DNA of 64,000 bases from Candidatus Dadabacteria bacterium (lineage in GTDB: Bacteria; Desulfobacterota_D; UBA1144; Nemesobacterales; CSP1-2): positions 128,001 through 192,000 of the forward strand of contig CAWDVW010000007.1 in the NCBI GenBank assembly GCA_963805855.1, in the 5' to 3' direction. Position 1 is the first letter of the stretch. The number at the start of each line of letters is the position of its first letter. This document shows positions 19,442 to 62,820 of the stretch, piece after piece. The notes under the pieces are model-generated. The model searched no databases. It was not told the DNA's origin and saw only the letters and a list, made by a program, of their open reading frames with translations. The position numbers and the translations under genes were made by a program.

Positions 19442-21022
19442 ATGAAGAATAAGAAAGTGTATAGGTCTGAGTTGACACCTTTATCGTTTCTGCGCCGGAG
19501 CGCTTTTGTATATCCCAATAAAATTGCAGTTGTATACGGCAAGACACTCTATACCTATCGAGAATTAGAAGAAAGAGTAAATCGTTTTACTTCCAGTCTG
19601 CTGACTTCAGGACTAAAGAAGCATGAAAGGGTGGCCTTTCTCTCACCTAACACGCCTGCATTATTAGAAGCACATTTCGCAGTCCCATCCGCACGCGGCG
19701 TTATTGTCGGAATAAACACTCGCCTTAGCCCAGATGAGATTGAATACATACTCGATCATTCCGGGGCTCGTTTCCTCTTTGTTGATGAAGAGCTATATGA
19801 GCTTGTTGGAGACATTGATCATGATCGTATAAGAGTGGTACGGGTTGAGAATTCTGGAGAACCAGACGACCCTTATGAACAATTTATACAAGAAGGCTCT
19901 CCAGAGGCCGTTCAGGATATGATCGAGGATGAAGAAGAATCTATATCTATTAACTATACATCGGGAACAACCGGCAGACCCAAGGGAGTTATTTACACTC
20001 ACAGGGGTGCTTATCTAAACTCCCTCGGTTCTGTAATTGAAACGGGCATGAACGCGAACAGCGTATTTTTGTGGACGGTACCGATGTTTCATTGTAATGG
20101 CTGGTGTTTCACCTGGGCCGTTACGGCAGTGGGAGGCAAGCATGTTTGTTTGAGAAGGGTAGACCCAAGCCTTGTTTGGGATCTTATCAATGAGGAAGGT
20201 GTGACCCACATCAACGGAGCTCCTACCATTTTTACTATGTTGGTGAATGATCCCAAGTCTAAGAGGCTGGAAAGGCCTATAACTGCGACCATTGCAGCGG
20301 CTCCTCCCTCTCCGACCCTCTTTAAGCAGCTTAGGTCACTGAACTTTCGGCCTATCCATATGTATGGATTGACGGAAACCTACGGGCCGATTTCTGTTTG
20401 CGCGTGGCAGAAGGGCTGGGACGAACTTAGCATCGAAGAGCAAGCCAGTCTTCAGGCCCGACAGGGTCAGGGATATGTTACAGCCGACCTCTTGCGGATT
20501 GTAGACAGTGAAAATAATGATGTATTGAGAGATGGCGGCACCATTGGGGAGGCAGTTATGCGTGGTAATAATGTAATGAAGGGGTATTTTAATGACCCGG
20601 ATTCGACCGAGGAGGCGTTTCGGGGTGGCTATTTTCATTCTGGTGATCTTGGGGTTTGGCATCAAGACGGCTACATAGAACTTCGAGATCGCAAAAAGGA
20701 CATCATTATCTCCGGCGGGGAAAACATCTCGACGATCGAAGTTGAGCAGACTATACTGAAGCACCCCGCGGTTTTGGAGTGTGCGGTGATTGCGATACCG
20801 GATGAGAAATGGGGAGAACGGCCCAAAGCTTTTGTAAAACTGAAAGAATCTCAATCTGTCTCACAAGAAGAGCTAATAGCGTTCTGTCGCAGCAATCTTG
20901 CCCACTTTAAGTGCCCGGATAAGGTCGAGTTCTGCGACCTTCCTAAGACTTCTACGGGCAAAGTACAGAAATATCTGTTGCGAGAAAAGGAGTGGAAGGA
21001 AAAGGAAAAACGAATTAACTGA
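19442..21022 (+). CDS. Acyl-CoA synthetase (AMP-forming, medium/long-chain fatty acid-CoA ligase)
   Basis: YTSGTTGRPKG, YGLTE, SGDLG, DRKKDIIISGGEN, PKTSTGK motifs all intact. Confidence 0.93.
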   Translation: MKNKKVYRSELTPLSFLRRSAFVYPNKIAVVYGKTLYTYRELEERVNRFTSSLLTSGLKKHERVAFLSPNTPALLEAHFAVPSARGVIVGINTRLSPDEIEYILDHSGARFLFVDEELYELVGDIDHDRIRVVRVENSGEPDDPYEQFIQEGSPEAVQDMIEDEEESISINYTSGTTGRPKGVIYTHRGAYLNSLGSVIETGMNANSVFLWTVPMFHCNGWCFTWAVTAVGGKHVCLRRVDPSLVWDLINEEGVTHINGAPTIFTMLVNDPKSKRLERPITATIAAAPPSPTLFKQLRSLNFRPIHMYGLTETYGPISVCAWQKGWDELSIEEQASLQARQGQGYVTADLLRIVDSENNDVLRDGGTIGEAVMRGNNVMKGYFNDPDSTEEAFRGGYFHSGDLGVWHQDGYIELRDRKKDIIISGGENISTIEVEQTILKHPAVLECAVIAIPDEKWGERPKAFVKLKESQSVSQEELIAFCRSNLAHFKCPDKVEFCDLPKTSTGKVQKYLLREKEWKEKEKRIN

Positions 21023-40757: not shown

Positions 40758-42095
40758 ATGTCTCTGAAAAAGAATGATCTAGCTACCCTGAACGAGCAGC
40801 TAAAACATCATATGGGAATCATAATGAAATGCACCTTGCCATCGGCTAAATATGGCAAATTGCTTCTAGCGTCTCCACCTGATTCGAGATACCCGTACAT
40901 CTATCCAAGGGATACGAGTTGTGCGGTTCAATTGTTCAGGCGTCTGGCTGGCTCTCACAATGGTTACGACGTAGCTGATCAGTCGTTTGAGATCATCAAG
41001 TCGATGGCAACTTTCATGAAGGATTGCCTATCAACCTATGGGTGCTGGGGCCAGCGTTACAGCATAGAGGGAGATGACAAGAGTATATATAGACAAGAGG
41101 ACAACGTTGCGCACGGAATATCAATCATTTGCAATTATTTGTTGACCGCCAACTACTTAAAAAAAGACATCGAGAATCTGGAAGATTATCTACAATGTGT
41201 GAATAGTGCACTGGATTATAGCATGAAAAATTCGTACACAAAGGAATTAAACCTATTCTATTCAACTACCTCAATTCATGAGTCTTCCATGGAAGAGGGG
41301 TATACCTGCTGGGTTAACTTTTCCTATCTCTATGCCTTTTCGCTGGCCTGTGAAGTGGCCTCACTCTTAGATGAAAAGCACATCATATCGAGGGATCACC
41401 TGAGTTTCAGAAAACAGTTTCTGTATTCTGTCAGTGAACTCTTCATGTCGGGGCACAGATATGTGAGGCGCATAGAACCCCAGGGGAATATGGATATGCG
41501 TCCAGATTTCACTCTCCTGAGTCCATTTTATTATGGTTTTCTGCACTATAAGCCCGAGATGGAAAACAGTATCCAGTACATCGAAAAGCAGCTCTGGGAT
41601 CCGGAACTCGGAATGATCATGAGATACCTGCCCTTCTATAGGGATTTTGCAACTCATATCCATGCGGGGAATGGCCCCTGGACGCAGTACACTGGCATTC
41701 TGGCACAATATCACTATTGGAAGGATGATATCGAGCGGGGAGACGAGTTGCTTGGTATGATTGATAGATTCAAGGATGAGAAAGGGGACATTCCTGAGCA
41801 TCTGTCCACGGTTCAGAGGTATGAAGAGTTTATGGAGAAAGAATGGAAGACCGGGACAGATTTTAATAAGGAATTCTACAAGCCGATTCTGCTTGAGGAT
41901 GTTGACTTCAATAAGATCCTGGAGGAGGCTAACAATATGTCGAGATCATACGAAGAGACAGGTAAAAGGTGCACATTCAGAGACGAATCCAGCAGCGAGG
42001 GTGGTTACATTCAATTCTCGAAACCGCTTATGTGGTCGCACGTGGAGTATGCCCGCGCACTTCTAGTCAGGGCTGGTGATTGGTGGAACTTGTAG
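40758..42095 (+). CDS. Glucoamylase/GH15-like (alpha/alpha)6 hydrolase
   Basis: YIYPRD, QEDNVAH, SIHES, GNGPW, IPEH and PLMWSHVEY motifs; GGAGGTGA RBS. Confidence 0.7.
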   Translation: MSLKKNDLATLNEQLKHHMGIIMKCTLPSAKYGKLLLASPPDSRYPYIYPRDTSCAVQLFRRLAGSHNGYDVADQSFEIIKSMATFMKDCLSTYGCWGQRYSIEGDDKSIYRQEDNVAHGISIICNYLLTANYLKKDIENLEDYLQCVNSALDYSMKNSYTKELNLFYSTTSIHESSMEEGYTCWVNFSYLYAFSLACEVASLLDEKHIISRDHLSFRKQFLYSVSELFMSGHRYVRRIEPQGNMDMRPDFTLLSPFYYGFLHYKPEMENSIQYIEKQLWDPELGMIMRYLPFYRDFATHIHAGNGPWTQYTGILAQYHYWKDDIERGDELLGMIDRFKDEKGDIPEHLSTVQRYEEFMEKEWKTGTDFNKEFYKPILLEDVDFNKILEEANNMSRSYEETGKRCTFRDESSSEGGYIQFSKPLMWSHVEYARALLVRAGDWWNL

Positions 42096-42761
42096 GGATA
42101 TCAGTAGGATATTAACCACACTTAATGTGACATATTAAGTAATTGATGTCCGGTTGACTTTATTAAATAATCTTATTGTCTTTCAAGATTTAGATTGGTT
42201 TATGTAGATTCGGATGTAAGATCCGACGTGAGGTGAAATTTAGACTAGAGCGGGCTTTTCCTGTTGGATGCAACGTTAATTAGGTATTAAATACAAAGAT
42301 TACTAAGGAGGGATTACAGGATTAACTATCTTTTTGTCATTGGCGGAATCTATCCAGAGCCTGTGTCACTTTGCTTCATGAGTTGCTTTAAAATATTTTG
42401 TACAAATTCTGATTGGTCTCCAAACGAGTTGTTTAAAGAAAATCAATTGGCAAGTGTTAATTCTAGATTTTCGAATTACATAAATATATTTATTTAATGT
42501 GATTAGTTAATAATGCAAGAGGATTGTGCTTCCTCTCTGTTTAAATAATTCAAAATTGTGTAATCTTTAAAAACAAATTTCCTGTAGTTTGCTACAGGCT
42601 GGTTATACACTGTCATTGCGAACGAAGTGAAGCAATCCCATTTTTGGGTTTGCTTCATCCCCTTCGAATTAACCCTGGGTTACTCGCAATGAAAATTAAT
42701 ATGGGGCTATAATAAGACCACCCTGTCGCTTTATAAAGGGTTGATGATTCGGTGATCATAA

Positions 42762-45700
42762 ATGAGAAAAGTTAAAAATAAGCAAAACCGGATAGAAAGT
42801 GAGCCAAATTCAACCAAGCGTATAAGCAGTAAGCCCTCTGAAAATTATTCAACGTCATCTAAAACTTTGATTAAGGGGAAGAGGAAAGTGAAAGATTCCA
42901 CAAATAAATTGATTGATATCGAAAAACGCCTTCGAAAACAGAATGAGGTCCTTGTGAAAATCGCTAAGAGCAGATTCATGGAGAAGGGGGATTTGACGAA
43001 TGCCCTGAGGGAAATAATAGAAGCATCTGCTAAGACGCTGGGAGTGGATAGAGTTAACGTATGGCTTTACAATTACGATCGCTCGAAGATATATTGCATT
43101 GACCATTATGAAATGAGTTCAAACCAACACTCAAAGGGACTTGAATTAGCTTCCGCGGATTATCCATCGTACTTTGAAGCATTGGAAAAAGAAAGAATCA
43201 TAGCTGCTCACGACGCACATACCGATCCCAAGACGAAAGAGTTTTCACAAACATATTTGCTACCAAACCGGATTGGTTCGCTCTTAGACGCTCCAGTATG
43301 GAAAGGCGGGAAAATGATTGGTCTGGTTTGTCACGAGCATGTAGGACCAGCGCGGACATGGACAAACGAGGATCAAGCCTTTGCGGCATCTATTGCTGAT
43401 TTTATATCGCTGGCTTTTGAATCTAGGGACCGCAAGCAAATAGAGGCGGAACTGGAGGAGTCCCATTCGCTTTTAATTGCGACCCTCGAATCTACCGCGG
43501 ACGGGATTCTAGTGGTTGATAGAGAAGGGAAAATAATAAGATTCAATAGAAAATTCGTCGATATGTGGAATATCCCTGATTCCATCATTGAGTCGAAAGA
43601 TGACAACAGGGCATTAGAATTCGTCTTGAAACAGCTAAAAGAACCGGAACGGTTTGTTTCAAAGGTAAAGGAATTATATGATCAACCGGAATCCGAAAGT
43701 TATGATCTGTTGGAGTTTAAGGATCGAAGGTACTTCGAGCGCTATTCTAAGCCACAGGTGATTGGCAATAATATACTCGGGAGGGTTTGGAGCTTTCGGG
43801 ATGTTACGAATCAAAAACGAGCGGAACAAGCTCTTCGTGAAAGCGAAGAGCGTTATCGTACGCTTGTTGAACATACCTATGATCTAATTAGCGAGGCTGG
43901 TATCGACGGACGCTTTTTGTATCTGAGCGCTAATCATAAAGAGATTCTTGGTTACGAACCAGAGGAGCTCGAGGGCAAAAATATTTTCGAAAATATTCAT
44001 CCAGATGATAGTGAAACCGTAAAGCGGGAATTTCAGAGAATAATGGAAACATTCTCCTCTGGTCATGTGGAATTCAGAATCAAACACAAAAACGGGCAGT
44101 GGAGATGGATTGAAAGCTCTGGCAAACCATTGAAGACTGCCAATGGAGAAGTCCGAGCTGTGATTGCCTCACGTGACATAACTGAGAAAAAGATTGCTGA
44201 AGAAGCACTCAAAGAGAGTCTTTCGCTGCTATCAAGAAAAAACCGATATGAGACTATTATAGGTTCTGTTACCCGGAGCGTTCACCAATCCATTGATTTT
44301 CAAGAAGTGCTAGAAAATGCAGTCGAATCCATGAGTAAAAACATAGCTGGAGCCGAAAATGTGGGGATCTGGCTTGTCGAGGGAAATGATGCCGGTTTGA
44401 AAGCCTATAGAGGGTTCCCCGATTGGTTTGTAGAGCGTTTAAGTAAAATTCCATACCCCAAAGGGGTAACCTGGAAGACTATCACGAATGACAAGCCATT
44501 ATATTCTGCGAATACAGAAAAAGATAAGGTGATGGGGCCCGCCGGGATTGAATTGGGTACAAAGAGTTATCTGTCCATGCCTATACACTTTGGGGGTAAA
44601 ACCGTAGGTGCGATAAACATAAATTCACTAAAGGAGAGTGCCTTTGACAAAGAAGAGTTAAATCTGCTTGCGATCATTTCACAGCAGATAGAAGTCGCGA
44701 TTAACAATGCTAAACAGGCTGAAGCATTGCTTGAATCGGACAGGGCGCTTAGGGAAAGCCTTGATCAATTATCTAAAAAGAACAGGTATGAGACTATAAT
44801 AAGCACCGTGACCAGGAGTGTTCACCAGTCAACGAATCTCGAGGACGTTATGGATAACGCCGTACAATCAATCAGCGAAAATATAGGTGGGGCAGACAGT
44901 GTAGCAATTTACATAGTGGAAGGTGAGGAGGCTGTGTTAAAAGCTCAACGGGGTTACAGTGATTGGTATATGCAGAGGGTTGGAAGAATTCCGTATCCAA
45001 AGGGATATGCCTGGAAGGTTATCATGGACGAGCGTTATAGATATTGTGCGGATGTGGATCAAGATACGGTTATTGGTCCCGCCGGTAGGGAGTTCGGCAT
45101 AAAGAGCTATTTATCCATGCCTATTCTATACGAAGGTAAGACGATCGGAGTGATAAATGTAAATTCGCTCCAGAAAGATGCCTTTGATGAGGATGAGTTG
45201 AAACTCCTGGAAATAGTGAGGGAGCAAATCACGGTAGCATTAAATAATGCCAGACAAAAAGGAGCGCTGGAAGAGGCGCTTTCAGAGGTCGAAAGATTAA
45301 AAGATCGGCTGGTGGACGAAAGTGAAAATATACATGGTGGTTTTGAAAGCAGCCACATTTTTAAAGATGTGAAAGGCAAAAGCATGTCACTTCAAAGGTC
45401 TCTTTTTAAGGTTTACCAATATGCATCATCTGATTCAGTACTATTGATTCAAGGTGAAGTTGGTACTGGAAAGGAACTGATAGCTAGATCTGTTCATGAG
45501 ATTAGCCCGAGGAGGCAGAGACCGTTTATTAGCGTAAACTGTGAAGAATTGTCTAAAGAAGCAATTGAGCTGGAGCTATTCGGACACGAGGCAAGGGGTT
45601 CGGCTACGGGCGCGCTCTCCATTAGGATTGGTCGATTTGAAATGGCAAATAATGGAACTATCTATCTGGAGGAGATTGGCGCAATACCACTGGAATTACA

Positions 45701-46118
45701 GTACAGCTTAGCTAGGATCTTTCAGGAAGGGGTTTTTAGTAGATCTTCAAATAACCGTCTGATTAAGGTTAATGTAAGGGTTATAGCTTCATCAAAAACC
45801 GATGTGGGTGAGCTCTTCCAGGAGGGCAAACTCGGTGAAGAGCTATACAATCAAATAAATAGTTTTCAGGTCACCATTCCGCCCCTCCGTGATCGCAAAG
45901 AGGATATTCCACTGCTTTCGAAACATTTCATTGATAAACATGGATATAAGCTGGAGAAAAAAATAGATTCAATACCCCATGAAGTTGTCGAATATCTCCA
46001 AGCCCATGATTGGCCTGGAAACGTCAGTGAACTGGACAGATTACTAGAGCAGGCAATATATCGTTCGAAGGGAACAACCCTGGAATTGCATGATTTGGCT
46101 GACCTTATTGTGAAATAA
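42762..46118 (+). CDS. GAF-PAS-PAS-GAF-GAF + sigma54-activator-like AAA+ protein with degenerate motifs and no HTH
   Basis: GAF (SLLDAPV..CHEH), PAS (ESTADGILVVD, IHPDD, SRDITE), duplicated GAF (KNRYETII..VTRSVHQS); AAA+ GEVGTGKE, ELFGHE..GSATGA, YLEEI, WPGNVSEL. Confidence 0.85.
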   Translation: MRKVKNKQNRIESEPNSTKRISSKPSENYSTSSKTLIKGKRKVKDSTNKLIDIEKRLRKQNEVLVKIAKSRFMEKGDLTNALREIIEASAKTLGVDRVNVWLYNYDRSKIYCIDHYEMSSNQHSKGLELASADYPSYFEALEKERIIAAHDAHTDPKTKEFSQTYLLPNRIGSLLDAPVWKGGKMIGLVCHEHVGPARTWTNEDQAFAASIADFISLAFESRDRKQIEAELEESHSLLIATLESTADGILVVDREGKIIRFNRKFVDMWNIPDSIIESKDDNRALEFVLKQLKEPERFVSKVKELYDQPESESYDLLEFKDRRYFERYSKPQVIGNNILGRVWSFRDVTNQKRAEQALRESEERYRTLVEHTYDLISEAGIDGRFLYLSANHKEILGYEPEELEGKNIFENIHPDDSETVKREFQRIMETFSSGHVEFRIKHKNGQWRWIESSGKPLKTANGEVRAVIASRDITEKKIAEEALKESLSLLSRKNRYETIIGSVTRSVHQSIDFQEVLENAVESMSKNIAGAENVGIWLVEGNDAGLKAYRGFPDWFVERLSKIPYPKGVTWKTITNDKPLYSANTEKDKVMGPAGIELGTKSYLSMPIHFGGKTVGAININSLKESAFDKEELNLLAIISQQIEVAINNAKQAEALLESDRALRESLDQLSKKNRYETIISTVTRSVHQSTNLEDVMDNAVQSISENIGGADSVAIYIVEGEEAVLKAQRGYSDWYMQRVGRIPYPKGYAWKVIMDERYRYCADVDQDTVIGPAGREFGIKSYLSMPILYEGKTIGVINVNSLQKDAFDEDELKLLEIVREQITVALNNARQKGALEEALSEVERLKDRLVDESENIHGGFESSHIFKDVKGKSMSLQRSLFKVYQYASSDSVLLIQGEVGTGKELIARSVHEISPRRQRPFISVNCEELSKEAIELELFGHEARGSATGALSIRIGRFEMANNGTIYLEEIGAIPLELQYSLARIFQEGVFSRSSNNRLIKVNVRVIASSKTDVGELFQEGKLGEELYNQINSFQVTIPPLRDRKEDIPLLSKHFIDKHGYKLEKKIDSIPHEVVEYLQAHDWPGNVSELDRLLEQAIYRSKGTTLELHDLADLIVK

Positions 46119-46141
46119 GACACATAGAGAGAACGGGACAA

Positions 46142-48988
46142 ATGAAGAGAAGTAAGGATAGTTTTAATCGGTCTTTGCTTGACGCTTTTGATAATTTTGC
46201 ATCGCGCAACTGCTTCAAGGTAAAAAGGGGCTTCGGGTATCGAGATTATAATTATATGCAAATTCAAGGGTTCGTTTTTCGAATTGCGCTATTTTTACAA
46301 TCTCTCCGACTCGGCAAGGGCGAGAGGATTGCGATTGTTGCTGAAAATTCCCCTGAGTGGCTGGCGGTATTTATTGCTACTATGTTTTCAGGTTGCGTCG
46401 CCGTACCTCTATCGACAAGCCTCCGCTCGGACATGTTTAGATTAATACTAAAAGACTCAGGAGCCAGGGTTGCCGTAATTCAAGATCAACGATATTACAA
46501 TGAAATTCGCAACCATGAAGGGGAACTGCCTGATTTGAAAACAATCATTCTTGTTAACGAGTCGGTTGAATCCATGTCCGAGGTTATCTTGCTTAATTCA
46601 ATTCTAGAACAGTCGATCGCTCATAAAGATACGGCCGAAATTCGTACATTGGCAGAAGGAATTGACCCAAATGATTTCGCCCTAATTTTGTATACCGCAA
46701 AGGAAACCGATAAGCCAATGGGGGCGGCATTTAACCATTTCCAGATGTATACATCATTAGAGAATATGTCAAAATGGTTAAATTTTGAAGAGGATGATAT
46801 GGGCTTTACACTTCTCAACTGGGGAAACCCCATAAGTCTAAAGGTATCACTTGATTACTTTCTATCTGGTGTCAACAATTCTTTGGCCGAGAGTATTGAC
46901 ACCGTGTTTGAGAATCTCCAGGAAACGAGTCCTACCTTTGTCCTGACAATTCCATTTGCACTCGAGAATATATACAACAAGGTCATAACTGAGTTTAGTA
47001 AGTTTCACGGTTCGCGTCAAAGCATTTTTCTCTGGGCTTTAGCCACTAGTAAGGAGTATCATTCTGCAGGTCTGACGGCATCAAATGAATTACGTGAACG
47101 TTACAGGCGTGCTGACATGACATTTTTTAGTCAGATCAGGGGGATGTTAGGGGGTAGACTTCGTCGGATTTATTTGGCGGGTGCAAGTATATCTGAAGAG
47201 TTGGTAGATTTCGCAGAGGCTATAGGATTGAAGGCCTTCAATTTATATCATGTCACCGAGTCTGGCGGATTTCCCGCTCTTTGTGCTTCTGATGCAAACC
47301 GTCCCGGAACCTGTGGACAGGTGGCACCTGGTTTCCAAATTCGTATTGCCGATGATAGCGAGGTTCTGGTCCGGGGTGAAACTGTAATGAAACAGTACTG
47401 GAAGAAGCCCGAAGAAACCTCTCAAACGATCGATTCTGATGGTTGGTTACATACAGGGGACCTAGGACGCTTCGATTCCGATGGTTTTCTATATTTAACT
47501 GGATATAAACAGTCAGTGATTAAGTTGTCAAAAGGGCTAAAGATAATGCCAGATACGGTTGAAAAGGTATTAACCTCAAATCCGTACATTTATCAGGCTG
47601 TGGTATTAGGAGAAGGGAGACCCTATGTCTCGGCCCTCATCGTGCCAAATTATGAAGCACTTGCGGCGCACCTGCGTGAACATGCAGAAGGAGAGGTTGG
47701 AACGCTTAACATGTATCACCCTGAAGTCCATTCCCTCTTAGACAAAGTGGTTGCCGAAATTAATAGCAAATTAGACCCTTGGGAGCGAATAGAGGCTTAT
47801 ACACTTCTAGATCAGCCCTTTTCCGGGGAGAAGGGTGAGCTAACACAGTCCATGAAGGTCAACCGTAATGTAATTGCAGAACGCTATTCTGTCCATACAG
47901 AGGCGATGTATCCGATGACAATTAGATTGGAAGAGAGTGCGGTAACTCAGGTGGAACTAGAGCCTGAGCATCTTCGTGAATTGTTAGAGAAGCAAGACAT
48001 TCTTGACGCATGGATAAAGGACGCCGGTATTGGCTTCTTGTTCGACCTTGCAAGGGCGAAGCAAATCGACATCACCTCAATGGTCCATATTTGTGATACT
48101 GTTTCAGCAATTGCACAGATGCAGAGCGAAGAAAAGCCACTGTCCACTGCATTAATAGTCGGGGATCCTTCCAGAGTTTCACATGTCTTACCGGAAAGCG
48201 AGATTCAACTTCAAAGGTATGATCATATTCGCCGGATGCGTCAGGTAGTGATTACGCTTGCTAAGGTGGTAGACGGCGTGTTGTTTGCCTACGGTGTGGA
48301 TAAACTTGGTTACGTGAGGAAGATACATAAGCTAGATAGAGAACTGGATCACCCTGCCAGTTTTCTTCTTGGACCACAGTTCAGTCATCACGCAGCCATC
48401 TCTGAAAAATGTGATGCGGTTGTGTTCTTTGTGCCTAAAGGCGGTAGACAGGTACGAGTATTTGCAAATGGCCAACTCGTAGGTCGATACACAGATGGAA
48501 ACTGGTATTCGGAGAGTACACCGTATTTGGAGGAATCTGTCGCTAGACTGGCTGAACAAAAACAGATCGATTTGAAATTGTTAACAAGGATACTACGCTG
48601 TGCATTCCAGATGTCGGAGGAGAATTTAGGTGCAATTATAGTCCTGGGAGACTCGGAGGTAATTTTAAAACGCTCCGACCCCCCGGGGATAGCCGCCTTT
48701 GCAAACCTCCTCAGCACTCCTATAGAAAAGATATCCGATCGCGAATTGATCAACTTTGCCAAGCAGGACGGAGCAACAATTATAGATACAAATCAGGGTC
48801 TATTCAGGGCATGTATGGTTCTACTTAGACCTGAAGCCAATACCAAGGCTGATGTTGGAATCGGTAAAGGTGCTCGTCACAGCAGTGCTGCTAAGATGAG
48901 CGCTGAAGCAAATTGCTTGGCGATCACGGTTTCACAGGATGGTCCTATTACTTTGTACGACGCCGGAAAGAGGATATTATCTTTATAG
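46142..48988 (+). CDS. Degenerate long-chain acyl-CoA ligase fused to diadenylate cyclase (DisA_N-like) domains
   Basis: AMP-binding fold (ENSPEW, WLHTGDLG, GEGRPYVSALIVP, GELTQSMK) with an altered P-loop; C-terminus FAKQDGATII, GARHSSA, ITVSQDG. Confidence 0.8.
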   Translation: MKRSKDSFNRSLLDAFDNFASRNCFKVKRGFGYRDYNYMQIQGFVFRIALFLQSLRLGKGERIAIVAENSPEWLAVFIATMFSGCVAVPLSTSLRSDMFRLILKDSGARVAVIQDQRYYNEIRNHEGELPDLKTIILVNESVESMSEVILLNSILEQSIAHKDTAEIRTLAEGIDPNDFALILYTAKETDKPMGAAFNHFQMYTSLENMSKWLNFEEDDMGFTLLNWGNPISLKVSLDYFLSGVNNSLAESIDTVFENLQETSPTFVLTIPFALENIYNKVITEFSKFHGSRQSIFLWALATSKEYHSAGLTASNELRERYRRADMTFFSQIRGMLGGRLRRIYLAGASISEELVDFAEAIGLKAFNLYHVTESGGFPALCASDANRPGTCGQVAPGFQIRIADDSEVLVRGETVMKQYWKKPEETSQTIDSDGWLHTGDLGRFDSDGFLYLTGYKQSVIKLSKGLKIMPDTVEKVLTSNPYIYQAVVLGEGRPYVSALIVPNYEALAAHLREHAEGEVGTLNMYHPEVHSLLDKVVAEINSKLDPWERIEAYTLLDQPFSGEKGELTQSMKVNRNVIAERYSVHTEAMYPMTIRLEESAVTQVELEPEHLRELLEKQDILDAWIKDAGIGFLFDLARAKQIDITSMVHICDTVSAIAQMQSEEKPLSTALIVGDPSRVSHVLPESEIQLQRYDHIRRMRQVVITLAKVVDGVLFAYGVDKLGYVRKIHKLDRELDHPASFLLGPQFSHHAAISEKCDAVVFFVPKGGRQVRVFANGQLVGRYTDGNWYSESTPYLEESVARLAEQKQIDLKLLTRILRCAFQMSEENLGAIIVLGDSEVILKRSDPPGIAAFANLLSTPIEKISDRELINFAKQDGATIIDTNQGLFRACMVLLRPEANTKADVGIGKGARHSSAAKMSAEANCLAITVSQDGPITLYDAGKRILSL

Positions 48989-49254
48989 ATGCGGTGCCGT
49001 TCGGAACTTTTCACGAGAAAACAGAGAATCTTTTGTATAAGGGTTAAGCGGACTATTGTCTAAGTCGCTAATGGCCTTTAGCTCGCCCAAGGGCTTCCAA
49101 TGTAATTTTGCACGGAACCCTACTTTCCTGTGCATCGTTAACGGAAAGACTTCTTGTTTAGGGACTGACATACCGCGGGAGGGTTATTTATTGTTTTTTT
49201 TAACCGATTATGTATAAACATACAGACTAAACTGTAAAAAAGTGTAAATACCTT

Positions 49255-51634
49255 TTGCTATCTGTAATAACTAAATATACAAAATGGCTCCATACCCGCT
49301 GGCCGGCGGGCGTTGTAGAAAAACTACCCCTTGTTAATGAGGATTATTCAACTAATATTCCTGGACTGTACGTTGTCGGTGATTTAACGGGAATCCCTCT
49401 TCTTAAGTTTTCTTCCGATAGTGGGGCCAAGGTTGTCAAGAATATTCTAGCAGGTGAGGATTTTAAACGACAGAAATCCGAAGAGAAAACGAAGGGGCTA
49501 GTGGATTTAGTAATCGTTGGAGCAGGGGTGTCGGGAATGGCATCGGCGTTAGAGGCAAGGAAAGCAGGATTGAGCTTTGAGATCCTTGAAGCAACCGAGC
49601 CCTTCTCGACTATAGTAAATTTCCCTAAGGGTAAACCTATTTATACCTACCCTAGAGATATGACCCCAGCCGGTGATCTCCAATTTTCCGCTACTGTAAA
49701 GGAACCTCTGGTAGATGAGCTTAAAGAACAGACACTTCGAAGGGGTATAGAGCCTCGAATTGCAAGGGTTGAAAGAGTCATACGAAGGGATGATTTTTTT
49801 GAGGTTGTTATACCTGACGGAGAAAACCTGCTTGCTAAAAGGGTAATCATTGGGATTGGGCGTTCGGGAAATTTCAGGAAGCTCGGTGTTCCGGGAGAGG
49901 ATCTGGATAAGGTTTTTAATCGTCTGCATGATCCAAAGGATTTTTGTGGCCAAAATGTGTTGGTGGTGGGAGGCGGCGATACTGCCTTAGAGACAGCAAT
50001 CGCATTAGCGCAGTGCGGTGGCTATGTATCGTTGTCTTACAGGAAGGATGAATTCTCAAGGCCCAAACCAGAAAACATAGAACGGCTTAACAAATTGATT
50101 TCAAATCCCATGGCTGCTGTTGGGGTCGAGACCCCAACGTCAGAGCGCGTAACGACGAGTACGGGTGCTTTTATCCCTTCGGATCATGCACCAGGAAAAA
50201 TCAAATTGCTGTTGAAGACTAAGGTAAAGAGCGTCACCGAAAATGAAGTGTCACTTGTAGATGCTGATGGAAAGGGAGTATCTATTCCAAATCAAGCGGT
50301 ATTTACAATGATAGGTCGTGAGGCTCCACTGGATTTTATTCGTCGCAGCGGCATTAAGATCAAAGGTGAGATTGGCGCAAAAGGTTGGGTTGGCTTAACT
50401 CTCTTTTTGCTTTTTGTCACGTTTGTCTACCATTGGAAATCGGGGGGCTATTTATCAAGGTTTTTTGAAACACATAATTGGTTTCCTTACAATGTGCCAG
50501 ATTTTATTTATGGCTTGGGTGCATTTGTCGCTGATAAGGCTGCCGATCCTTCTACCCTATTAGGTACTTTGACGATAAACCTTGAAGAACCCGGCTTTTA
50601 TTATAGTTTAATGTACACGTCACTCATTATTATTTTTGGTATACTCAGAATCAAGCGACGAAAAACCCCTTACGTGACGGTACAGACTGTGTCTCTAACG
50701 TTTTTCCAGGTACTTCCTCTATTTTTATTACCATACATAATTTTGCCGTACATGGGCCACAATGGATTGTTCGACTCTGGGGTATTGAAATCTGTGGCCG
50801 ACTCCCTCTTTCCCGAAGTCAACTATGAGCACGGACGAGAATATTGGAGGGCATTCGGTTTTATACTTGCCTGGCCACTATTCATCTGGAATGTCTTTAG
50901 CTATCAGCCCATGTGGGGTTGGTTGATCATTAGTCTGGTCCAGACTTTTGTAATCATCCCCCTATTGATTTATTTTTGGGGTAAGGGCGCATATTGTGGT
51001 TGGATCTGTTCCTGTGGAGCTATGGCAGAGACCTTGGGTGACACACAAAGGCAGAAGATGCCACACGGTGCATTTTGGAATAGGTTGAACATGGTTGGAC
51101 AGGTAATATTGGCGGTGGCCTTTCTCATCTTAATATTTCGAATTGTCAGCTGGATATTGCCCGATACCTCAATTGGGAATCTCTTTAATCGAATCTATGA
51201 GGGGCTTCTTTATAATTGGAGTTTTTTCGGGATCCAGATTAATTACAAGTGGTTTGTTGATCTTTTCCTGGCTGGAATAATAGGGTATGGGGTGTATTTC
51301 TGGTTTAGTGGACGTGTATGGTGTAGGTTTGCCTGCCCACTGGCGGCTTTGATGCACATCTACGCGAGATTTAGCCGGTTTCGTATCCTTTCTGATAAGA
51401 AGAAAGTGTATTTCGTGTAATGTCTGCACATCGGTTTGCCATCAGGGAATAGATGTAATGAACTTTGCGAACAAAGGTATTCCAATGGAAGATCCGGAGT
51501 GCGTTAGGTGCAGTGCGTGCGTGCAATCTTGCCCGACGGGTGTTCTACAATTTGGCCAGGTAAATAGAAGAACCGGCGAGGTAATTAAGATAGACAGCCT
51601 CGGCGCGTCTCCTGTGCTGATGCGCGAGCAGTGA
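49255..51634 (+). CDS. FAD/NAD(P)-dependent oxidoreductase fused to a membrane 4Fe-4S-binding (NapH/YccM-like) domain; one frameshift near 51405
   Basis: IVGAGVSG, VVGGGDTA, YCGWICSCG, WCRFACP. After ...SDKK a shifted frame gives CISCNVCTSVCHQG..CVRCSACVQSCPTG to TGA 51632-51634. Confidence 0.85.
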
Positions 51635-60246: not shown

Positions 60247-62820
60247 ATGCGATATGAAACCCTGGTTGATTTCTTTAGCCAACTTGCCACTCAGCCGGGG
60301 GACTATATAACCTACGACAGCGGTTACCGTTCCAAAACATTCTCTTACTCGGACGTCGCGCGCGCCGCTAGAGAATTCGCCCTTCGACTAAGTGGTAACA
60401 ACATAAAAAAGGGTGATAATGTGGTTATATGGAGTGAGAACAGGCCCGAGTGGGTGATCGCATTTTGGGGGTGCCTGATTAGTGGTGCTGTACTGGTACC
60501 TGTAGATTACCAATCTTCCCCAGATTTTTTGAAAAGGGTCATAAGTATCGTCGAGGCTCCTCTGGTTCTCGTTGGAGAGGAGACTGCGATGCCTTTCCTA
60601 GATGGAGAGGTTGGAGTCTGGAGCCTGGCTGATATCGCGCGGCCAAACGGTTCGGCCGATTCGGAGTTTATTAAATATCATGACAACGCCGGGAGTCGTC
60701 GAGCGAATGATGGCGGGGACTATCAGGGCTCGTATCGCATTGCTCGAGACGATGTTGCAGAAATTATTTTCACTTCCGGTGCGACAGCCGAACCTAAAGG
60801 AGTAGTGCTTACTCATGCAAACATTATTGCAAACCTGACACCGATTGAGAACGAGGCTTCAAAATTCCGTAAATATCTGAGGCTGTTTTTACCAATACGG
60901 TTTCTCATTCTTCCTCCGCTTAGTCATCTCTTTGGCCAGGCGCTGGCGCTGTTTGTAGTACCGATGATCGGGGGAACTGTGATCTTTATGCATGGTTATA
61001 ACCCCTTTGATGTCGTGCGCCAGATTCGAAAGAGGAGAATATCGGTTTTGGTATGCGTTCCAAAGATGCTCGATGTCTTGCGGATGCATCTTGTCACCCA
61101 AAAGTTACGCGAATCAAAATTAGCTGACCGAAGCTTGCATATCGCAAGGCGCTGGCTTAAGCACTGGAGAGTTCATCGGTTATTCGGGCTTAAGTTTTGG
61201 AGCTTAATTGTTGGTGCGGCTCCACTTGATTCGGAGCTGGAAGAATTTTGGTCCCGTCTTGGATTCGTGGTTATTCAGGGTTATGGCCTTACGGAGAGCG
61301 CTCCGATAGTCACATTCAATAATCCCTTAAAGGTAAGCAGAGGATCGGTGGGAAAAGTGATTCCGGGTGTTGAGATAAAGATCGCGCCGGACGGTGAGAT
61401 ACTTATCCGAGGCGAGACGGTAACCCATGGGTATTTCAAGGCTCAAACTGAAACGGAAGAAGCCTTTGACGGAGGGTGGTTTCATACTGGTGACATCGGT
61501 TCTTTCGATGAGGAGGGTAATCTCTATATACATGGTCGTAAGAAGGAGATTATTGTCACTCCAGAGGGCATGAACGTGTTTCCAGAAGATGTTGAGCATG
61601 TGCTTAATGCTCTCCCCGGTGTTACCGAATCGGCGGTAATTGGAGTCAGGAGCGATGGAGAAGAGCGTGTACATGCCGTTGTGGTGCCAGACCGAAAGAG
61701 TCCCGATTATAAGGGCGTTATTGATATTGAAGGGCTTATGCGTACTGCAAACTCCCGTCTAGCGGATCATCAGAAGATACGGGGCATCACGGAGTGGCCT
61801 GGTGAAGGGCTCCCTCGCACCGAAGGAACACAAAAATTAAAAAGGCGGGAGGTCAAGCAATGGTATGAAAGCGGGAAGACGGGACATGAGATTTATGATG
61901 CCAGAGATTCGATTGATTCAATAATTGAGCGGGTCTATGGTGATAAAATTACGGGTCCTGCCGAGACAATTGAAGAGCTTGGTCTCAGCTCATTAGAGCG
62001 GGTAGAGCTATTGATGGAGATTGAGGATAAGTTTCAAACTCATTTGGATGAGGAGAGATTTACTCAAGCTCGAGATGTGGGAGAAATTCGCCGACTAATA
62101 GAGAATTCGCAAATCAGTCCTGCTGTCGAACCAGTAGAATTCCCAGCGTGGAACAGAAGCTGGATTGCTCGTGTGTTCAGACGTCTAAGCCTTGCGACAT
62201 GGGTCCTTCCGATATCCGGAATCTTCGCTTGGATTCGAGTCGACGGATTAGAAAATCTTAAATCGCTCGATGGGCCAGTAATTTTTGCATCCAATCACCA
62301 AAGCTCATTGGACGCTCCTGTGATTCTCCGCTCTCTACCTCCTCACCGACGTTATAAGGTAGCACCGGCAATGGGTAAGGAGTTTTTCAGGGCTCACTTC
62401 TACCCCAAGAAACACACACGATGGGAATGGTTTCTAAAAAGTATTGAGTATTATCTTGCCTCGTTACTATTTAATACCTTCCCTATTCCTCAGCGAGAGA
62501 CTGGAACCCGACAGACCCTCCGTTATATTGGTGAATTGGTAGACGAGGGAAACTCGATCCTTATTTTCCCCGAGGGCGAACGTACCGATAAAGGGGAGAT
62601 CAAGGAATTTCAGCCAGGGGTAGGTATGATTGCCTCGATGCTGAACATCCCTGTAGTGCCAGTTTACCTGGAAGGGGTTTTCAGGGTGTTGCATCGATCA
62701 TGGAGGTTTCCGAGGCCCGGTCGTGTGCGGGTGGTGTTTGGACCGCCCCTCCATCTCAGGGGTAAGGATTATCAATCGCTCGCAGGGGATGTTGAAAGCG
62801 CAGTAAGACAATTGCAATAA
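60247..62820 (+). CDS. Acyl-CoA/acyl-ACP ligase + carrier domain + PlsC acyltransferase (Aas-like)
   Basis: FTSGATAEPKG, GYGLTE, TGDIG; carrier LGLSSLERVEL; acyltransferase NHQSSLD and FPEGER. Confidence 0.9.
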   Translation: MRYETLVDFFSQLATQPGDYITYDSGYRSKTFSYSDVARAAREFALRLSGNNIKKGDNVVIWSENRPEWVIAFWGCLISGAVLVPVDYQSSPDFLKRVISIVEAPLVLVGEETAMPFLDGEVGVWSLADIARPNGSADSEFIKYHDNAGSRRANDGGDYQGSYRIARDDVAEIIFTSGATAEPKGVVLTHANIIANLTPIENEASKFRKYLRLFLPIRFLILPPLSHLFGQALALFVVPMIGGTVIFMHGYNPFDVVRQIRKRRISVLVCVPKMLDVLRMHLVTQKLRESKLADRSLHIARRWLKHWRVHRLFGLKFWSLIVGAAPLDSELEEFWSRLGFVVIQGYGLTESAPIVTFNNPLKVSRGSVGKVIPGVEIKIAPDGEILIRGETVTHGYFKAQTETEEAFDGGWFHTGDIGSFDEEGNLYIHGRKKEIIVTPEGMNVFPEDVEHVLNALPGVTESAVIGVRSDGEERVHAVVVPDRKSPDYKGVIDIEGLMRTANSRLADHQKIRGITEWPGEGLPRTEGTQKLKRREVKQWYESGKTGHEIYDARDSIDSIIERVYGDKITGPAETIEELGLSSLERVELLMEIEDKFQTHLDEERFTQARDVGEIRRLIENSQISPAVEPVEFPAWNRSWIARVFRRLSLATWVLPISGIFAWIRVDGLENLKSLDGPVIFASNHQSSLDAPVILRSLPPHRRYKVAPAMGKEFFRAHFYPKKHTRWEWFLKSIEYYLASLLFNTFPIPQRETGTRQTLRYIGELVDEGNSILIFPEGERTDKGEIKEFQPGVGMIASMLNIPVVPVYLEGVFRVLHRSWRFPRPGRVRVVFGPPLHLRGKDYQSLAGDVESAVRQLQ

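Follow-up and report, generated by a model that had tools for sequence, protein, structure and literature searches.

The gene described here lies in the window, by which we mean the entire 64,000-nucleotide stretch of Candidatus Dadabacteria DNA that was analysed. It is a single open reading frame on the forward (+) strand (46142..48988, stop codon included), which encodes 948 amino acids, as the initial annotation had stated; the parts of the gene and the upstream neighbour described below lie on the same strand. The product consists of an acyl-CoA-ligase-like (ANL-like) domain, followed by a dead copy of the diadenylate cyclase (DAC) domain and then by an intact DAC copy. The initial annotation had placed the motifs correctly throughout, as judged against the printed translation, and the HMM search that it proposed matched AMP-binding, AMP-binding_C_3 and DAC in Pfam. 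The plain ANL-DAC layout that it described was incomplete, since residues ~640-795 form a second DAC fold, and the real order is ANL, pseudo-DAC and DAC.

The fusion is real and conserved. All of the 120 best homologs (51-99% identical) carry AMP-binding, AMP-binding_C_3 and DAC domains, and relatives are encoded at 69 loci in at least six phyla; the family is large, with members in Chloroflexota, Acidobacteriota, Thermodesulfobacteriota, Dadabacteria and Spirochaetia. Because the architecture recurs across these homologs and loci, an assembly chimera was rejected. Among the best 120 homologs, the C-terminal half is more tightly constrained than the ligase half, with mean pairwise identities of 0.69-0.70 and 0.48-0.49, respectively.

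The ligase-like part comprises an AMP-binding domain (46232..47401, residues 31-420; PF00501, E 3.6e-39, 135 bits) and an AMP-binding_C_3 domain (47513..47911, residues 458-590; PF23562, E 4.5e-11, 43.6 bits). It thus shares the full two-domain ANL scaffold, including the type of C-terminal domain, with FadD11-like long-chain fatty-acid--CoA ligases, but departs from their catalytic consensus at the P-loop and at the Gly of A5, as well as at the Lys of A10 in half of the family members. The A3 motif, or P-loop, reads YTAKETDKPMG (46691..46723, residues 184-194), so that the protein has TAKETDKPMG where the canonical consensus is [ST][ST]G[ST][ST]G.PKG; even a relaxed pattern ([ST][ST]G[STAE][ST]G.PKG) was found in none of the 120 best homologs. 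Position 193 within this loop is Met in the window protein and Lys in 45/120 homologs, T or S occupies position 189 in 105 and G194 is kept in 117. The A10 position (K572, 47855-47857) retains its Lys in the window protein and is Lys in 57, Arg in 19 and another residue in 44 of the best 120; both lysines occur together in 21/120. The A5 motif YHVTE (47246..47260, residues 369-373) keeps its Tyr and Glu and has lost its Gly: Y369 is present in 120/120, E373 in 111/120 and Gly at position 370 in 10/120 homologs, and D440 is invariant (120/120). Decay of the adenylation motifs, which the initial annotation had noticed in this one gene, is therefore common to the whole family. Its further claim that the hinge had changed from GR to GY describes this protein accurately (GYK, residues 454-456), but the substitution is clade-specific, with R in 63, H in 40 and Y in 13 of the 120 best homologs.

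The two other ligases encoded in the window retain the canonical motifs, as had been stated. The 526-aa ligase at 19442 contains YTSGTTGRPKG, YGLTE and RKKD (272 bits), and the ligase at 60247 contains FTSGATAEPKG, YGLTE and GRKKE (222 bits), so that the AMP-binding score of the fusion protein is about half of theirs. An insertion in the ANL part of the fusion is absent from the former and partly present in the latter. The best NCBIfam match was FadD11 (205.8 bits, cut-off 950), and no named ligase family was reached, as all 25 of the NCBIfam models listed scored below their own cut-offs.

The ligase-like part is followed by a short helical linker (47927..48061, residues ~596-640), which the AF2 model resolves into three short helices (model residues 13-44, pLDDT 62-85) and which has a mean pairwise identity of 0.66 among the best 120 homologs. 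The region behind it (48062..48526, residues ~641-795) is a second, degenerate DAC-fold domain, which we call pseudo-DAC. Pfam gave only a weak DAC match here (E 0.1) and listed no other domain, and hhalign aligned the region with the C-terminal DAC over 133 columns (probability 98.3%, E 1.7e-14). In an unbiased search of 48,161 chains with its AF2 model (pLDDT 94.1), the top six matches were all DAC domains (Z 9.9-12.9), and the next match had a Z of 4.6. The pseudo-DAC contains D711-G712 (48272-48277), which are present in 120/120 homologs, and lacks the G-x-R-H and S-x-D/E motifs. Among the best 120 homologs, it is conserved as strongly as the catalytic DAC.

The C-terminal domain (48542..48985, residues 801-948) is a genuine DAC in its HMM match, its fold and its catalytic residues, in agreement with the initial annotation. 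PF02457 matched residues 822-943 with 60.6 bits (cut-off 27, E 1.4e-16), and PDB profiles of CdaA and DisA matched with E-values down to 8.1e-12. The structure prediction that had been suggested recovered the fold: the AF2 model of the C-terminal module (pLDDT 89.1) matched 40 DAC entries (VIA Z 13.4-17.1, rmsd 2.4-3.2 Å, 123-138 residues aligned), and the next match had a Z of 4.0. A homodimer prediction with two copies of residues 596-948, run without controls, scored 0.26 against a mark of 0.42 and speaks neither for nor against pairing. Judging by the alignments, all the residues that never vary among active DACs are present in the domain. The DGA motif (48767-48775, residues 876-878) is almost fully conserved in the best 120 homologs (D876 in 119, G877 in 120, A878 in 119). 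In the G-A-R-H-S motif (48869-48883), G910, R912 and H913 are each found in 120/120 homologs, as are S931, D933 and G934 in the V-S-Q-D-G motif (48929-48943, residues 930-934). The initial annotation had singled out RHS (48875-48883, residues 912-914) in place of RHR; this carries no weight, as two other DACs encoded in the genome have A or M as the third residue, and the position varies widely across the wider family. The S-x-D-G of this domain aligns with S-E-E of the genome's own CdaA, which holds the metal ligand. The residue before R-H is Ala in 115/120 homologs, Thr in the two CdaA-type paralogs of the genome and Ser in its 200-aa DAC; a Thr at this position matters for CdaA activity. 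The ANL-fused family thus has an invariant signature of its own, G-A-R-H-S-S-A and S-Q-D-G-P, unlike that of the CdaA paralogs. Two 2026 preprints single out the corresponding positions. According to one, D, G, G and R are fully conserved across the DACs on its tree (10.64898/2026.08.10.743972). The other describes DGA and RHR residues as contacting the phosphate and ribose backbone, and PanS as losing its product when the conserved DGF and GGR sites are mutated (10.64898/2026.08.10.743927).

Several known proteins resemble parts of the fusion. CdaA and DisA, the accepted c-di-AMP synthases, which need two facing DAC domains, share the catalytic fold and motifs with the fusion DAC. Unlike CdaA, the fusion protein contains no CdaA_N membrane domain (Pfam) and has Ala instead of Thr before R-H, and unlike DisA, it contains neither a DisA linker nor an HhH domain (Pfam). 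The best-scoring NCBIfam DAC model for the module was that of DacZ/CdaZ, a soluble protein with a regulatory domain directly before its DAC; the match (NF041371, 38.8 bits, cut-off 430) covers the DAC part only (module residues 232-352). The N-terminal domain of DacZ is described as pyruvate-kinase C-terminal-like (PMC10249747), whereas the domain before the DAC in our protein has a DAC fold, with no pyruvate kinase among the listed fold matches. In CdaG, or DS-2C, proteins (DACNG, DACNH and DAC), a catalytic DAC likewise stands behind a degenerate DAC-like domain; the fusion differs from them in that DACNG and a CBASS context are lacking and the N-terminus is an ANL module. DS-2C proteins, with a DAC after a DACNH domain, are reported to make c-di-AMP in vitro (10.64898/2026.08.10.743927), and DACNH is described as very distantly DAC-related and devoid of catalytic residues (10.64898/2026.08.10.743972). 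Neither DACNH (PF21750) nor DACNK (PF21753) matched in the window's genome at E-values up to 10. When compared by hhalign with a CdaG-like protein from the same order, the DAC profile matched the DAC (probability 94.6%), while the pseudo-DAC profile did not match the DACNH region (0.3%). Assignment of the middle region to a DacZ-type PK_C-like domain, DACNH or DACNK was rejected, as none had HMM or profile support. Atlas look-alikes with DACNH or DACNK had scores of only 0.80-0.85 and serve as leads.

The unit formed by pseudo-DAC and DAC is a portable module that recurs after N-terminal domains of more than ten kinds. In relatives, it follows PAS-GAF-PAS, REC, CBS, HTH, Lon, CHAT and PRTase-CE domains. 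Its identity to the window's module is 72% in protein P0123, where it stands behind PAS-GAF-PAS, and 69-72% in two genomes from the same taxonomic family as the window; in distant relatives, it is fused to zf-HC2 with Lon_C, CHAT, PRTase-CE or HTH. Within the wider family, D, G, R and H are all kept in 78/127 representatives, and 23 more have Lys in place of Arg; D-G is lost in some relatives (P0160, P0157, P0215, P0252 and P0264). The initial annotation had not recognised the architecture as characterised. A survey of titles in the literature on DAC with AMP-binding or acyl-CoA found none on an ANL-DAC fusion, which is in line with that view; Galperin's 2023 catalogue reportedly lists 22 DAC families, and the ANL-DAC architecture may already be among them.

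The gene upstream (42762..46118) ends 23 nt before the fusion gene, with which it probably forms an operon. In its product, PAS-GAF-PAS-GAF is combined with a bEBP-type AAA+ domain (Pfam) whose GAFTGA loop is degenerate; a DNA-binding domain is lacking. The survey of neighbourhoods that had been proposed recovered the same kind of AAA+ gene upstream in six further loci (L001, L038, L039, L043, L045 and L046), where it shares the strand of the family gene and lies 19-59 nt away from it. Ser/Thr kinases neighbour family genes in 12 loci (3 scanned), and DHH or DHHA1 phosphoesterase-like genes adjoin in 6 loci (6 scanned, 2 above the Pfam cut-off). Usp, an SLC12-type permease and a class III cyclase each occur in 4 loci (one of each scanned). 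The conserved neighbours are, by their predicted products, signalling genes, and neither CRISPR nor CBASS genes were observed in the surroundings of ANL-fused genes. A scan of positions 42000-49400 for promoters and terminators gave counts close to those of shuffled sequence.

The window's genome encodes three other DAC proteins. Two of the genome's other proteins contain CdaA_N, and the gene for one of them is followed by a YbbR gene (a cdaA-cdaR pair). A high-scoring CdaA-type DAC was found in 6/6 genomes examined (the window's own and five others), so none of them depends on the fusion protein for c-di-AMP. A check for genomes that rely on the fusion gene as their sole DAC found none among the six and did not discriminate between readings. 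A c-di-AMP riboswitch was not found in the window's genome (93.8% complete), which means little, as the control was positive in only 2/14 reference genomes.

Taken together, we consider it fairly probable that the protein is a ligand-regulated c-di-AMP-type cyclase, in which the ligase-like domain acts as sensor. It would work in the cytoplasm as a signalling enzyme, with sensor, coupling and output as its functional parts. The A5 Tyr and Glu and the A7 Asp of adenylate-forming enzymes hold the adenosine of the adenylate; these residues are kept, while the P-loop for phosphate binding is lost and the A10 lysine is also lost in about half of the family. This pattern suggests that the long-chain-acyl-CoA-synthetase-like module is a candidate ligand-binding sensor rather than a working ligase, and a carboxylate, an acyl-adenylate or an adenine nucleotide are candidate ligands; the enzyme-dead module of the initial annotation, with a fatty acid, acyl-CoA or ATP/AMP as its ligand, is likewise a hypothesis. 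The linker and the pseudo-DAC would form the coupling part, in which the pseudo-DAC may hold or occlude the true DAC and so relay the state of the sensor. As output, the DACs of two molecules would meet head-to-head and convert two ATP to c-di-AMP or a closely related compound, which would add to the c-di-AMP pool of the genome's canonical CdaA. The classical sensors that precede the same module elsewhere (PAS-GAF-PAS, REC and CBS) fit a role of the N-terminus as input and of the DAC as output. The analysis shows the domains, the folds, the residue conservation, the portability of the module and the conserved neighbours; what we infer is the catalytic activity and its product, the loss of ligase function, the ligand and how the pseudo-DAC contributes. 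Certain observations run against this reading: the Ala before R-H in 115/120 homologs, as opposed to Thr in the CdaA paralogs; the CdaA-type DAC in all six genomes, together with the lack of a riboswitch match in the window's own; the D-G and G-x-R-H residues, which a domain that only bound a dinucleotide would keep equally well; the K572 of the window protein, with which some residual adenylation chemistry may persist; and Lon, CHAT and PRTase-CE in distant relatives, which are effector-type partners, as effectors are usually joined to sensors.

A broader alternative, to which we give a minor but appreciable chance, is that pseudo-DAC and DAC form a single-chain module whose function is unlike that of any studied DAC, either as an asymmetric one-chain active site whose product is a signal different from c-di-AMP, or as a receptor with a cyclase fold. 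The module may then couple that nucleotide to the ligase-derived metabolite sensor and the degenerate AAA+ protein at this locus, and to Lon, CHAT or PRTase-CE elsewhere. SAVED, which arose from a fused CARF pair, offers an analogy: fusions such as Lon-SAVED and SAVED-CHAT combine a single-chain pseudo-dimer of a nucleotide-handling fold with the same Lon and CHAT effectors as the distant relatives, but they have another fold, and the pseudo-DAC-DAC module retains catalytic residues.

Two more specific readings concern the same module. In a nucleotide receptor, c-di-AMP or a different (oligo)nucleotide would be gripped between the two DAC folds of one chain, which would relay the binding to the attached domain or the AAA+ neighbour. 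The tandem folds provide a built-in pseudo-dimer, the distant relatives carry effector-type fusions (zf-HC2 with Lon_C, CHAT, PRTase-CE and HTH), some relatives have lost D-G, and the canonical CdaA of all six genomes could supply the ligand. Moreover, because the DGA and RHR residues are described as contacting the product backbone in DAC structures (10.64898/2026.08.10.743927), their conservation is compatible with binding no less than with catalysis. We nevertheless regard a receptor as unlikely, as the ANL and PAS-GAF-PAS partners in the subfamily would leave proteins made of sensors only, the REC and CBS fusions argue for the module as an output, the catalytic D, G, R and H persist in most of the wider family (and with Lys for Arg in the 23 further representatives noted above), and S-x-D-G, kept in every ANL-fused homolog, would be unneeded for binding alone. 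An active DAC-type cyclase with a product other than 3'3'-c-di-AMP, such as a mixed or linear dinucleotide that signals apart from CdaA, seems distinctly unlikely to us. Such a product would be in keeping with the invariant signature of the family, the three further DAC proteins of the genome and the divergent DHH/DHHA1 genes that adjoin in six loci as candidate dedicated hydrolases, and DAC domains are reported to make 3'3'-cUA besides c-di-AMP (10.64898/2026.08.10.743927). Against it, every non-defence DAC characterised so far is stated to make c-di-AMP by default (same preprint), and B. subtilis is described as running three DACs on one shared pool (PMC10636490).

Finally, we think it very unlikely that the ANL domain still forms adenylates by means of its unusual P-loop, in which case the protein would be bifunctional or channel an acyl-adenylate or AMP: the ligase half is still conserved at the mean identity given above, Y369 and D440 are always kept and E373, T/S at position 189 and G194 mostly so, and the window protein has K572, but the canonical P-loop is found in none of the 120 homologs, Lys193 is replaced by Met here and is present in a minority of homologs, the A10 Lys is kept in fewer than half and both lysines in far fewer, the Pfam score is about half that of the two canonical ligases in the window, and every NCBIfam ligase model scores far below its cut-off.

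With the ligand-regulated cyclase as the favoured reading, the gene belongs to a widespread family of bacterial proteins that are most likely signal-controlled messenger synthases of undescribed design. Annotations label its members 'long-chain acyl-CoA synthetase' or 'AMP-binding protein', so metabolic reconstructions of metagenomes probably miscount them as fatty-acid enzymes. The pseudo-DAC-DAC unit is a candidate general signalling module, which deserves a name and a profile of its own. If the module had a novel single-chain function, the ANL-fused family would link acyl or adenylate metabolism to an undescribed signalling axis. Characterised diadenylate cyclases are controlled by partner proteins or DNA, and few of the signals that switch these enzymes on and off are known. 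In a cyclase that is hard-wired to a scaffold derived from an acyl-CoA ligase, finding the ligand would mean finding a primary signal for c-di-AMP synthesis.

The gene at 46142-48988 on the forward strand is one uninterrupted reading frame of 948 codons, whose product reads with fair probability as a ligand-regulated cyclase of the diadenylate cyclase (DAC) type with a ligase-like AMP-binding (ANL) module as its sensor. Pfam finds AMP-binding (PF00501) at residues 31-420 (E 3.6e-39, 135 bits), AMP-binding_C_3 (PF23562) at residues 458-590 (E 4.5e-11) and DAC (PF02457) at residues 822-943 (E 1.4e-16, 60.6 bits against a cut-off of 27). Translation reproduced every motif and coordinate of the initial annotation: the degenerate P-loop YTAKETDKPMG (46691-46723), YHVTE (residues 369-373), GYK (residues 454-456), DGA (48767-48775), RHS (48875-48883) and VSQDG (residues 930-934), all on the forward strand. 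That annotation described a ligase fused to a DAC domain; both parts are present, but it overlooked a degenerate DAC-fold domain, here termed pseudo-DAC, at residues ~640-795. The protein therefore consists of ANL-N, ANL-C, a short helical linker, pseudo-DAC and DAC.

The fusion is no assembly chimera, the caveat attached to it at first. A search of a clustered protein collection yielded 872 homologs at E <= 0.001 among 8000 candidates scored; the best 120 of these, all full-length and used for every residue count below, are ~930-1000 aa long and 51-99% identical to the window protein, and PF00501, PF23562 and PF02457 occur together in all of them. Relatives are encoded at 69 distinct loci on one-genome-per-species contigs. 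As labelled in the records, 46 loci are Chloroflexota-type (Anaerolineae, Caldilineaceae and others), nine Acidobacteriota/Thermoanaerobaculia, four Dadabacteria, three Thermodesulfobacteriota, one “Deltaproteobacteria”, two Spirochaetia, one Ignavibacteriales and three unclassified; the nearest (L001, 91% identical) is labelled Thermodesulfobacteriota. Some assemblies carry two or three paralogs (e.g., L019, L024 and L068). Distribution among the 40 searched relatives of the window's genome is patchy, with a match in 5 of 14 genomes of its taxonomic family and in none of the 26 from the order's other families. The source annotation is “long-chain acyl-CoA synthetase” or “AMP-binding protein”; the ANL-DAC family is real, conserved, mis-annotated and uncharacterised. 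The literature searched on DAC proteins did not contain this fusion, though it may be among the 22 DAC families that Galperin catalogued in 2023.

Pfam gives no above-threshold match in the ~200 residues separating ligase from DAC, and the pseudo-DAC was recognised from five results. The profile of residues 640-790 aligns with that of residues 800-948 (hhalign probability 98.3%, E 1.7e-14, 133 columns). On its own, this stretch matches Pfam DAC below threshold (E 0.1), but over nearly the whole profile (positions 8-118 of 119). In a confident AF2 model of residues 596-948 (pLDDT 89.1, pTM 0.81), helices and strands follow one another identically in the two halves, and residues 636-800 alone are also modelled well (pLDDT 94.1, pTM 0.90). 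Among 48,161 solved chains, searched with this second model and no Foldseek pre-filter, the top six matches were DAC domains only, with 130-138 residues aligned (DisA 7y0d, Z 12.9; 2fb5, Z 12.8; DisA 3c1y, Z 12.2; DacM 7dg0, Z 11.9; CdaM 8ofj, Z 11.7; CdaA 9g69, Z 9.9), and the seventh drops to Z 4.6. Roughly at the DGA position lies D711-G712, kept in 120/120 homologs; the domain has G-P-Q-F where the true DAC has G-A-R-H, and it lacks the S-x-D/E motif in the alignment of the two.

The true DAC matches CdaA and DisA in profile comparison (E down to 8.1e-12), in Foldseek (E down to 1.3e-8) and in fold (Z 13.4-17.1, rmsd 2.4-3.2 A, 123-138 residues aligned). G877, G910, R912, H913, S914, S915, A916, S931, D933, G934 and P935 are each invariant in the best 120 homologs, and D876 and A878 are each kept in 119. 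The core D, G, G and R, fully conserved across DACs on the tree of one preprint (10.64898/2026.08.10.743972), are all present. Another (10.64898/2026.08.10.743927) places the DGA and RHR residues in contact with the phosphate and ribose backbone, and records loss of product in PanS mutants at the conserved DGF and GGR sites. RHS in place of RHR, noted initially, is uninformative, as the third residue varies both within the window's own genome (GTRHR in the canonical CdaA, GTRHA in a second CdaA-type protein, GSRHM in a 200-aa DAC) and across 127 proteins of the wider tandem family (S 32, L 14, N 14, R 13, others). One real departure is Ala instead of Thr before R-H (115/120).

Among known systems, the closest described logic is that of CdaG/DS-2C, in which another domain precedes the DAC: a DACNH domain called distantly DAC-like in 10.64898/2026.08.10.743972, and members make c-di-AMP in vitro according to 10.64898/2026.08.10.743927. 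The window's pseudo-DAC is not recognisable as DACNH or DACNK by HMM and profile comparison. DacZ was rejected (38.8 bits on its own model, whose cut-off is 430), and Pfam domain content rules out CdaA and DisA. One of 120 phylum genomes searched encodes a 591-aa CdaG-like protein with DACNH (88.6 bits) and DAC (L074, G058:C1:441551-444862).

Pseudo-DAC and DAC form a portable unit. Residues 601-948 gave 332 matches at E <= 0.001 (148 at E <= 1e-10) among 1.84 billion representative proteins. Within the best 150 of these 332, 127 have a near-complete C-terminal DAC, preceded by a pseudo-DAC-type domain in 107; D, G, R and H are all kept in 78 of the 127, and Lys replaces Arg in 23. Pfam scans of 46 unit-bearing proteins revealed stand-alone units (313-390 aa), a unit 72% identical to the window's behind PAS-GAF-PAS (P0123), and units behind REC, CBS, HTH, LRR and TPR. 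Others lie C-terminal to zf-HC2+Lon_C (P0131, P0132, P0137, P0138, P0187), CHAT (P0240, P0252, P0264) or PRTase-CE (P0161, P0165, P0173, P0188, P0208, P0248), with D-G and G-x-R/K-H mostly kept. These protease- and PRTase-type effector fusions resemble Lon-SAVED and SAVED-CHAT immune effectors; they may represent a conflict system based on DAC that is still undescribed. Such fusions, in distant branches, leave some room for the DAC pair acting as a receptor, which we consider unlikely for the ANL-DAC subfamily. In the window's taxonomic family, three genomes carry the ANL form and two a 788-aa form of PAS-GAF-PAS type (G008, C130:8770-9723; G018, C259:2265-3218) that matches residues 631-948 only, at 69-72% identity. 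The C-terminal unit has thus hardly changed while the N-terminal modules in front of it were exchanged, probably in recent times. For this subfamily, such exchange speaks for the unit as output and the N-terminus as input.

The neighbours of this putative cyclase are partly conserved. An upstream ORF (42762-46118, forward strand, 1118 aa) ends 23 nt before it and contains PAS, GAF, PAS and GAF domains as well as a bEBP-type AAA+ domain with lid; Pfam finds no DNA-binding domain in it, and its GAFTGA loop reads GSATGA. A like gene lies 19-59 nt upstream at six loci (L001, L038, L039, L043, L045, L046) from Thermodesulfobacteriota, Dadabacteria, Spirochaetia and one unclassified genome, and the five more distant ones (all but L001) have changes in this loop as well, and in the Walker B acidic pair. 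The window's genome encodes sigma-54, and this conserved partner may be a degenerate ATPase with another target. A downstream ORF (49255-51420, forward strand, 721 aa), beginning 266 nt after the gene, combines an N-terminal pyridine-nucleotide-disulphide oxidoreductase with a C-terminal membrane part bearing Fer4_5 motifs; conserved in L001 only, it probably lies outside the system.

Chloroflexota and Acidobacteriota loci have other neighbours, which once more are genes for signalling or related to ions. Ser/Thr kinases occur at 12 loci (three scanned with Pfam), and Usp, SLC12-type permeases and class III cyclase-AAA-TPR proteins at four each (one of each scanned). Divergent DHH/DHHA1 proteins of 375-439 aa directly adjoin the gene at six Chloroflexota loci (L011 10853-11980, L024 6685-7911, L027 11175-12308, L029 1824-3143, L030 894-2111, L055 1552-2763; all scanned, DHH E 4e-8 to 8e-4, two above Pfam's cut-off, a weak DHHA1 match in two) and are candidate dedicated phosphodiesterases. 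Known phosphodiesterases for c-di-AMP and pApA have the DHH/DHHA1 fold, and known c-di-AMP targets include Usp and potassium/osmolyte transporters. PMC10249747 names some of these targets. The pairings are suggestive, not proof.

For the ANL-DAC protein, the proposed cyclase, the initial annotation stressed altered ligase motifs, and this decay proved family-wide. The window's two other ligases do keep canonical motifs (ORF 19442, YTSGTTGRPKG and YGLTE, 272 bits; ORF 60247, FTSGATAEPKG and YGLTE, 222 bits), with about twice the 135 bits of the studied gene on the Pfam AMP-binding model. The latter (60247-62820, forward strand) adds phosphopantetheine-binding and acyltransferase domains in an Aas-like acyl-ACP synthetase/acyltransferase architecture. 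None of the best 120 homologs has a P-loop fitting even a relaxed canonical pattern: the canonical Ser (position 186) is Ala in 64, the first Gly (187) is kept in 45, the first Thr (188) is Glu in 71 and Lys in 28, and the Lys (193), Met in the window, is Lys in 45 and Arg in 51. The A5 Gly (370) is kept in 10, and the A10 Lys (572) is Lys in 57, Arg in 19 and another residue in 44. The reported change of hinge GR to GY is present in the window protein, but with R in 63, H in 40 and Y in 13 homologs it is confined to its clade. Y369 and D440 persist in all 120, G194 in 117 and E373 in 111. ANL-N and ANL-C have mean pairwise identities of 0.49 and 0.48; the values are 0.66 in the linker, 0.69 in the pseudo-DAC and 0.70 in the DAC. 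Selection thus still acts on the ligase half, though not on its catalytic motifs. Judged from these alignments, it is worn out at the family level and has probably lost activity; a ligase still active, with both P-loop and A10 Lys in only 21/120, is very unlikely. The surviving residues, which we take to be those holding adenosine, are expected of an enzyme-derived binding module, a pattern that does not itself name the ligand.

The idea of an enzyme-dead ligand-binding module controlling cyclic dinucleotide synthesis was probably right in the main, if anatomically incomplete for want of the pseudo-DAC. ANL enzymes rotate their C-domain upon substrate binding. A small ligand (carboxylate, acyl-adenylate or adenine nucleotide) would bind the ANL module and cause a conformational change which, relayed via linker and pseudo-DAC, would govern, in either direction, the head-to-head meeting of the DAC with that of a second molecule, condensing two ATP. 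A cyclase with a different product is quite improbable. The window's genome encodes three further DAC proteins (L070, C7:461665; L071, C6:83265; L072, C7:511677): a canonical cdaA product (CdaA_N+DAC; YbbR/cdaR gene downstream, folP upstream), a second CdaA_N+DAC protein of 399 aa and the 200-aa DAC-only protein. A CdaA-type DAC is also present in five other fusion-carrying genomes examined, and the fusion would therefore have an accessory place in the c-di-AMP toolkit.
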